Origin: Promethearchaeota archaeon
GTDB taxonomy: Archaea > Asgardarchaeota > Lokiarchaeia > Sigyniarchaeales > SOKP01
DNA length: 64,000 nucleotides
Assembly: GCA_048938855.1 (NCBI GenBank)
Contig: JBHLLT010000011.1
Coordinates: 32,001-96,000, forward strand
Direction: 5' to 3'
Shown here piece by piece: positions 26,782-42,433 of the stretch (position 1 is the stretch's first letter; every line of letters starts with the position of its first letter). The notes below the pieces were generated by a model. The model ran no database searches and was not told where the DNA came from. It was given only the letters and a program-made list of their open reading frames with translations. The position numbers were made by a program, and so were the translations under genes.

Positions 26782-27267
26782 GTGAAAAAAACGAATAGAA
26801 ATGGAAAAGATTCAAAAAAAGTTGAAATTGAAGATTCAAACGGTTTAAAAATTTCCTATGATAAAGACGAATTAAGCAACCAATTTCCTCATTTGATTGA
26901 GGAAATTTCAACTAAAAAGAAATCTTTAAAAATTGAATCAATTAATATGGATATAGAACCAGAAAAAGAGAAGACGCCACAGAAAACTAACAATCTTTAT
27001 CTTAATGAATTATACAATCCTGGTGTAGTAGACTTTTTAAGAAGATGCAAAAGTACGGAAGACGCAATTGATATATTGGAATACTTAATGACAAGAAAAG
27101 AAATTTCCCTTGAAGATTACAATAAATATAAGAAAATCATTTCACAAGAAGGAGGATTAAAGCAACTTATTAATGAACATGGTGGCTTAAAAAGACCAGG
27201 ATATTATATGAGAAAGTATTATAAAAAAGAGAATAATAATCAAGAATTAAATACTAAACCAGATTAA
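26782..27267 (+). CDS. DUF2095 family protein
   Basis: FPHLIEEI and YNP.VVDFLRRC...EDA..I.EYL motifs. Confidence 0.75.
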   Translation: MKKTNRNGKDSKKVEIEDSNGLKISYDKDELSNQFPHLIEEISTKKKSLKIESINMDIEPEKEKTPQKTNNLYLNELYNPGVVDFLRRCKSTEDAIDILEYLMTRKEISLEDYNKYKKIISQEGGLKQLINEHGGLKRPGYYMRKYYKKENNNQELNTKPD

Positions 27268-27275
27268 TATCTATC

Positions 27276-27348
27276 GACAGATGATGAACTTATGACAAAG
27301 TTAGCTACTTGCTCGGTAGCAATGACATTGTCGCCCCAAACTGATGTC
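27276..27348 (+). ncRNA. box C/D guide RNA (predicted target 23S rRNA Gm2251 equivalent)
   Basis: Terminal stem GACA/TGTC, box C ATGATGA 27281-87, box D CTGA 27341-44, D-guide TGTCGCCCCA; fills the intergenic gap. Confidence 0.8.
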
Positions 27349-27360
27349 ATTTCTTATATA

Positions 27361-27612
27361 TTAAATTCCTGCTAATCTCTTTCTAAAACGAATTCCTTTC
27401 TCTGTTAAAAAATATTCATCATTATTCTGTTGAATAAGACCTAAATCACGTAAAACAGGTATCCTCCCATTTATACAAGATATAGGTAAACCAGAAAATA
27501 ATTTTATAGTTTCATAGTTTTTAGCTCCATTATTAATAGCAACCAGTATTTCAATTCCCATATAACCTAAGAGATTTTTCAAATCCTCATAAGTTTCTTC
27601 GTTTTTGGGCAT
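27361..27612 (-). CDS. small winged-helix protein
   Basis: 83 aa; L.DLGLI...YFLTEKG wing motif. Confidence 0.7.
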   Translation of the reverse strand: MPKNEETYEDLKNLLGYMGIEILVAINNGAKNYETIKLFSGLPISCINGRIPVLRDLGLIQQNNDEYFLTEKGIRFRKRLAGI

Positions 27613-42331: not shown

Positions 42332-42433
42332 TGGACCTGACGGGAATTGAACCCGTGACCTCTTGAATGCGAATCTTGGAACTAAGCTTTCTGCTTAATA
42401 AGATCAAGCGATCTTCCACTGATCTACAGGCCC
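42332..42433 (-). tRNA. tRNA-Ala(CGC) with a 30-nt intron at about position 32/33 (42373-42402)
   Basis: Acceptor GGGCCTG/CAGGTCC with G3:U70, T-arm GGTTCAATTCC, anticodon arm CTTGA-TTCGCAT-TCAAG after intron removal; 72-nt mature length. Confidence 0.92.

Follow-up and report, generated by a model that had tools for sequence, protein, structure and literature searches.

The window analyzed here is a stretch of 64,000 nucleotides from a Promethearchaeota archaeon of the Lokiarchaeia. A 93-nt gap within it separates a DUF2095 gene from a winged-helix gene and holds a 73-base element with a G+C content of 44%, compared with 25-27% in the flanks. The C box, D box, 4-bp terminal stem and inner hairpin described in an initial annotation of this DNA were all confirmed. 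The element is very probably a genuine archaeal box C/D dual-guide sRNA, and its parts and neighbors are listed in Table 1. Relatives of the same order used for comparison include P. syntrophicum (G143), L. ossiferum (G138) and CR_4 (G130).

Table 1. Features of the predicted sRNA locus in window coordinates; 23S rRNA positions follow E. coli numbering.
Feature	Position	Strand	Basis or remark
Predicted box C/D sRNA gene, dual guide (23S G2251 and U2460)	27276..27348	+	Box/guide pattern, stem covariation
Terminal stem, 5' arm (canonical stem of C/D kink-turn)	27276..27279	+	Pairs with 27345-27348; four pair types across homologs
C box, perfect	27281..27287	+	Invariant in homolog alignment
Predicted D' guide, 12 nt, antisense to 23S helix 89 (2456-2467)	27288..27299	+	A27295 (D'+5) opposite U2460; A27292 mismatches C2463
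D' box GUUA, degenerate	27300..27303	+	U replaces G of GA in window sub-clade; NNGA in 45/51 homologs
Hairpin closing C'/D' kink-turn	27304..27320	+	6-bp stem 27304-09/27315-20; apical loop UGCUC 27310-27314
Bulge base A27321	27321	+	Directly 5' of C' box
C' box AUGACAU, degenerate	27322..27328	+	Kink-turn parse, homologs
Predicted D guide, 12 nt, antisense to 23S P-loop	27329..27340	+	C27336 (D+5) opposite G2251; U27331 wobbles with G2256
D box, perfect	27341..27344	+	Sequence inspection
Terminal stem, 3' arm	27345..27348	+	Stem covariation
DUF2095 gene, upstream, co-oriented	26782..27267	+	Stops 8 nt 5' of sRNA; possible host transcript; context
Winged-helix gene (HTH_45/Sso10a-like), convergent	27361..27612	-	Syntenic neighbor throughout host order; context

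A search pattern combining the boxes with the guide was matched in none of 100 shuffles of the window. Across the phylum it was found in 113 of 400 genomes, ∼108 of them from the host order, and in 97/134 genomes of the host family and 1/1 and 9/14 genomes of sister families, counts in which related genomes are not independent of one another; a reversed-pattern control gave no match. The few matches beyond the host order, together with that in G226, resemble chance or different RNAs, and in genomes missed by the pattern, four more diverged copies and one decayed remnant were recovered at the syntenic position. Relaxing the pattern by omission of the C box produced noise only, and a scan of the genome collection returned 31 matches, mostly chance bacterial ones. 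Each pair of the terminal stem showed 9-24 compensatory (double-sided) changes among 42 sequences, and the hairpin stem closing the C'/D' kink-turn also covaries in the homolog alignment. A chance motif or a transcription terminator between two convergent genes might be suspected from the location between convergent stop codons, a fold z-score of just -1.58 and the 190 C...D box pairs held by the genome, but this reading, whose probability is vanishingly small, is refuted by both controls, the covarying stems, the covariation with rRNA and the persistence of the element through inversion and permutation (see below), and a terminator scan of the locus gave no terminator-like site.

A strict C/D scan of the genome passed five candidates in all. 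Beyond the element described here, four sequences of the same assembly (G000) combine a terminal stem with a box resembling C' and are thus C/D-like; they lie at C62:118138(+), C70:182312(+), C76:4475(+) and C90:48575(-), those on C62 and C70 being the most convincing. Elsewhere in the window, a tRNA missed by ARAGORN was detected by Rfam at 42332-42433 (-); its acceptor pair G3:U70 and its CGC anticodon point to a tRNA-Ala(CGC) whose anticodon loop is interrupted in its 5' portion, a non-canonical position, by an intron of ∼30 nt.

The initial annotation saw no clear C' or D' boxes and described the architecture as eukaryote-style, and both statements have to be revised. The hairpin is flanked by GUUA as D' box and AUGACAU as C' box, of which homologs carry better versions. 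In 51 distinct RNAs, the 4-mer ending in A that precedes the hairpin reads NNGA in 45 and GUUA in 5, counts that are partly built in, as the kink-turn parse demanded that D' contain an A and that two pairs of the stem form. On the 3' side of the hairpin, a short bulge is followed by a C'-like 7-mer, which is a perfect C' box in 13 same-genus genomes, and the apical loop UGCUC is kept in 44/50 host-family loci. Judged by these homologs, a degenerate C'/D' kink-turn is present here, and the hairpin provides its stem. Once the internal boxes are read in, 12-nt spacers lie on both sides, and the geometry is therefore of the archaeal type, for which spacers of ∼12 nt are characteristic (PMC7229835); of 59 loci, 40 have a D spacer of 12 nt and 18 have one of 13 nt. 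The window RNA thus combines a terminal C (RUGAUGA)/D (CUGA) kink-turn, internal D'/C' boxes and 12 + 12 nt spacers.

The target of the D guide was read from relatives. The only rRNA contig of the assembly (G000:C18; L001, L061; 3,181 bases) stops short of the P-loop, and given that its rRNA is just 66-69% identical to same-genus 23S, it is probably a contaminant from another archaeon; on both counts it was set aside as a target source. None of 53 genomes of the host genus contains an assembled P-loop. The 23S sequences used came from other genera of the host family, two of which are 92-93% identical to same-genus 23S fragments. One P-loop sequence is common to six other genera of the family, and the deviating copy in G235 looks like a contaminant.

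Against this family 23S, the D guide forms a 9-bp duplex from D+3 to D+11, with eight Watson-Crick pairs and one G:U pair and an energy of -19.4 kcal/mol at 37 °C. The pairing and its single G:U had been proposed in the initial annotation, as a 10-bp duplex; it is shorter because the host-family P-loop ends GGCU and not, as had been assumed, GGCA. Selection of G2251 by the D+5 rule holds, C27336 being the Watson-Crick partner at +5 in family-level rather than the host's own 23S. A 9-bp core at positions 3-11 is the range reported for functional guides (PMC7229835). A single site in 3.8 kb of family rRNA matches the 7-nt core of the duplex; contiguous-score shuffles equalled the duplex in 61/300 cases, a single-genome statistic that is weak alone. 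In Promethearchaeaceae, where the helix 80 stem differs, guide position 2 follows the target, with C where the target has G2248. These observations make it highly probable that the D guide directs 2'-O-methylation of G2251. Two homologs depart in detail: an extra A in G162 (L245) moves the D guide by one, so that G2250 instead of G2251 is predicted, and G275 (L242) has an internal mismatch in the D guide and a perfect helix 89 guide. The helix 80 stem of Promethearchaeaceae 23S (L065-L071) is itself unusual in that G2248 pairs with C2256, reversing the common C-G pair.

For the first spacer, to which the initial annotation had assigned no target, one was found in the 5' strand of 23S helix 89 (E. 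coli 2456-2467), and by its complementarity this spacer is a second guide that had been overlooked. Nine Watson-Crick pairs and one G:U pair form over its 12 nt with family 23S, with a mismatch at position 8, giving a duplex of -9.1 kcal/mol at 37 °C. In shuffles, the contiguous score was equalled in 230/300 and the anchored score in 13/300 cases, again single-genome statistics that are weak alone. Guide-target covariation was observed across five Asgard families: position 3 is G opposite C2458 in CR_4 and Heimdallarchaeota and A opposite U2458 elsewhere; position 10 is C opposite G2465 in Promethearchaeaceae and U opposite A2465 in the host family; and an A:U2463 pair at position 8 in G162 mends the mismatch. 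The first guide of G275 forms 10 consecutive Watson-Crick pairs with its own 23S. Pairing of the D' guide with the 5' strand of helix 89 can, on this covariation, be predicted with great confidence.

Other targets for the first spacer were rejected. Helix 71 of 23S offers 8 bp in Promethearchaeaceae and 5 bp in the host family and shows no covariation, 16S sites differ from genome to genome, and none convincing was seen among 24 called tRNAs. A third antisense element in the apical loop, with 5-9 bp near the P-loop, was likewise set aside, as 2-32 equally good sites exist in 2.2 kb. Six Asgard 23S sequences (L076, L077, L141, L144, L146 and L149) diverge abruptly just past the helix 89 5' strand and exceed the model in length, which suggests introns or insertions there. 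Additional complementary stretches of 8-9 bp match the 3' strand of helix 81 in 23S; they lie in the inner hairpin of G115 (L119) and toward the 5' end of the first spacer of CR_4 (L009).

Whether the second guide also modifies its target is less clear. Methylation of U2460 in the window sub-clade has a nearly even chance, the uncertainty arising because the D' box GUUA lacks the sheared G. A single-guide RNA, at least in this sub-clade, is an appreciable though less than even possibility: the D guide alone would methylate, and the first spacer would tether or chaperone helix 89, keeping domain V open, without producing Um2460. Such a role would fit the missing GA of the D' box, the mismatch of position 8 with C2463 and the low energy of the D' duplex, and conserved non-methylating guides are known in Pyrobaculum (PMC6009581). 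It would also fit the loci in which the register that places A5 opposite U2460 has slipped (10/56 host-order loci; by +3 to +4 in seven and by -1 in three) although the antisense sequence is retained. Against it, the register is kept in the other 46/56, in permuted homologs it sits at a canonical, perfect D box, and U2460 (U2734 in the alignment) is the site at which T. tenax sR17 is predicted to act.

The first spacer might instead serve mainly to pair with the 5' half of the D guide (27293-98/27328-33), giving a closed resting state that is opened by rRNA, which is unlikely. The helix is present in both the minimum-energy and the consensus fold, 5-6 of its 6 pairs are possible in 47/51 homologs, and U is found at D+10 in 56/56 host-order loci, even where it is mismatched to the target. 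However, a compensatory change was seen in just 1 of 42 sequences, from another family; at -5.3 kcal/mol the helix is weaker than both target duplexes; and it is lost in G275, Heimdallarchaeota and Sac-sR110, which retain the helix 89 match. Self-pairing was therefore rejected as the main cause of spacer conservation. Nor does the U at D+10 demand it, as one weak P-loop pair also occurs in guides that do not self-pair (Micrarchaeota, Pca sR36, Mka sR13 and yeast). A single weak pair in the G-rich duplex is shared by guides of Micrarchaeota, Pyrobaculum, Methanopyrus and Sulfolobus; long guide duplexes inhibit methylation (PMC7229835), and we infer that the weak pair is in keeping with selection for a duplex that is not too stable.

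Fibrillarin, Nop5 and L7Ae are encoded in the host genome, with a single Nop-domain match. Its sole SpoU-family protein is of the TrmJ type, and RlmB (TIGR00186) scored below cut-off in the host genome and five relatives. A TATA-like box lies 34 nt 5' of the C box in the window sub-clade only; no TATA enrichment was seen across 58 homologs, and a sigma-70-type scan was at background, so that a promoter of its own was rejected. The homolog site in P. syntrophicum is covered by assembled RNA-run contigs, which are blind to ends, strand and level. In G155 (L243), a decayed 3' remnant of the sRNA lies downstream of the winged-helix gene and no RlmB was found above cut-off; for these reasons, this lineage may lack Gm2251.

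The preferred interpretation, a dual-guide sRNA acting on 23S, leads to the following model. The balance tilts toward read-through of the upstream gene and processing of the sRNA out of that transcript, since the flip described below is tolerated and no conserved TATA box is present; the sRNA would then be cut from the transcript of whichever inward-pointing neighbor it follows. By analogy with established archaeal sRNP biology, L7Ae would bind both kink-turns, the degenerate C'/D' one less tightly than the terminal C/D one, and Nop5-fibrillarin would assemble next. During 50S assembly, the D guide would pair with the 7-nt P-loop of pre-23S and two helix 80 stem nucleotides, as read from the rRNA of relatives, and fibrillarin would 2'-O-methylate G2251, so that the sRNA may stand in for bacterial RlmB. 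The D' guide would ancestrally direct Um2460 and in the window sub-clade may only tether or chaperone. Both predicted sites lie next to the catalytic center of the ribosome. The biological effect of the G2251 mark is probably modest, given that yeast tolerates loss of Gm2619, which matters mainly when combined with other losses (PMC11121408).

The history of the gene was traced through homologs that carry both guides. Sac-sR110 of Sulfolobus acidocaldarius was detected by RNA-seq (5,636 reads) with no predicted target (Dennis et al. 2015, PMC4644070, Additional file 1). On Sulfolobus 23S (PMC4644070), its P-loop guide places +5 on G2251 with 11 pairs, including two G:U, and its helix 89 guide places +5 on U2460 with 8 Watson-Crick pairs. 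It is the nearest relative in which a single RNA carries both guides. Its guide order, with the P-loop guide at D' and the helix 89 guide at the canonical D, also occurs in Jordarchaeales G115, in Heimdallarchaeota HM7_B34, MAG_147 and five more, in two genomes of another order within the host class, and in family f13; counted by family, it is seen in f7, f13, f18 and f20. The window order was found solely within the host order and is for this reason probably a derived circular permutation specific to that order, which arose in its ancestor. The guide content argues strongly that the sRNA belongs to an old Sulfolobus-plus-Asgard family of the Sac-sR110 type. Circular permutation of a C/D sRNA gene has a precedent in Pyrobaculum sR56/sR57 (Lui et al. 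2018, PMC6009581).

Within the host family, the gene has in addition been inverted at its site, with an unchanged pair of convergent genes on its flanks (L009-L035, L095-L114). In CR_4, Promethearchaeaceae and genus g2, the sRNA points the same way as the winged-helix gene, whereas in g1, g5, g9, g10, g11 and g12 it points the same way as the DUF2095 gene. Long terminal inverted repeats (9-10 bp, AT-rich) are seen in several of the flipped lineages. Permutation and in-place inversion of one sRNA gene provide usable lineage markers.

Guides for G2251 are not confined to this family. One was found in Micrarchaeota, others are published for Thermoproteus, Pyrobaculum and Methanopyrus, and for three of seven archaea an sRNA had been predicted to target this site (PMC4644070). 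The sequences from Micrarchaeota (L206:6813-6860) and an unclassified archaeon (L191:7469-7517) have the form of canonical C/D sRNAs; in both, D' holds the P-loop guide, and the second guide is a different one that the two share. Family f17 (G079 L007:310-365; G080 L008:1501-1556) has the P-loop guide at D and a different first spacer, which in G080 is complementary to the A-loop region, judged by a published archaeal alignment; in both genomes, the two spacers are able to pair mutually.

The relation to eukaryotic snoRNAs was assessed by Rfam search. No family reached threshold with the element, and the near matches were all C/D snoRNAs: TBR7 (21.3 bits versus a gathering threshold of 45), snR67 (15 versus 55) and U31b (14.7 versus 37). 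A match to SNORD43 was discarded, as it spans the C box and the next few bases only. Human SNORD31 is grouped with snR67 as carrying the P-loop guide. The register claimed in the initial annotation, which gives it for SNORD31, is indeed common to yeast snR67, plant U31b and trypanosome TBR7. The proposal made there of an Asgard counterpart of a eukaryotic snoRNA does not stand as a special link, given the G2251 guides of other archaea and Sac-sR110 as nearest relative; a special Asgard-to-eukaryote link is not shown by these data.

A eukaryote-style precursor that is Asgard-specific and directly orthologous to snR67/SNORD31 is improbable. It would account for the guide core and register, together with the position-10 U wobble, that are found again in snR67, U31b and TBR7, and for the 25.2 bits (E 0.0017) scored on snR67 by the permuted form in Jordarchaeales. 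Yet all Rfam scores stay below threshold and rest on a guide core that is shared because the target dictates it, the second guide of snR67 serves Um2724 and not helix 89 (PMC11121408), the spacers have the archaeal length of 12 nt (PMC7229835), and the family takes in Sulfolobus. Architecture and the claim of Asgard specificity thus contradict this reading. The long variable spacers with non-functional internal boxes of the eukaryotic RNAs are absent here, and the single Nop-domain match does not correspond to an asymmetric Nop56/Nop58 and Snu13 assembly. The P-loop guide is the sole part shared with snR67/U31, and orthology with them is unproven; the sRNA is predicted to act like snR67 at G2251 while standing outside the snR67 family.

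A more speculative and rather doubtful scenario is an ancient single-RNA clamp of the peptidyl-transferase center, predating the Sulfolobus-Asgard split, that would join the P-loop and helix 89 (∼210 nt apart) in 50S assembly. The UGCUC loop of the host family would pair beside the P-loop, and snR67/U31 would descend from the P-loop half after replacement of the helix 89 guide.

In the literature searched, no paper cataloguing Asgard C/D sRNAs and no report of experimental mapping of Um2460 or of archaeal Gm2251 was found. The present analysis assigns predicted targets to the published orphan Sac-sR110 and yields a testable prediction for the cultured Asgard archaea P. syntrophicum and L. ossiferum, namely RNA-guided Gm2251 and possibly Um2460.

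Comparison with known systems places the window RNA as follows. The textbook archaeal C/D sRNA differs in having a K-loop and not a stem-closed kink-turn, and the inner boxes of the window RNA are degenerate. Sac-sR110 carries the same two guides, 12-nt spacers and one degenerate internal box; it differs in the reversed guide order, in a 3-nt K-loop as opposed to the 17-nt hairpin of the window RNA and in having its wobble at guide position 6 instead of 10. Pca sR36, T. tenax sR7/sR107 and Mka sR13 (G2251) and T. tenax sR17 (U2460) address the same nucleotides by the D+5 rule, but on separate RNAs, each joined with a different nearby second site. Permutation in Pyrobaculum sR56/sR57 lies within one genus and concerns 16S targets, whereas here it marks a whole order and both targets are kept. 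The Rfam consensus sequences of snR67 (RF01177), snoU31b (RF01285) and snoTBR7 (RF00295) have a like P-loop guide core, register and position-10 U wobble and longer spacers; the guide stands at D in snoTBR7, as in the window, and at D' in snR67 and U31b. Bacterial RlmB, by contrast, is a stand-alone SPOUT protein, but the predicted product, Gm2251, is the same.
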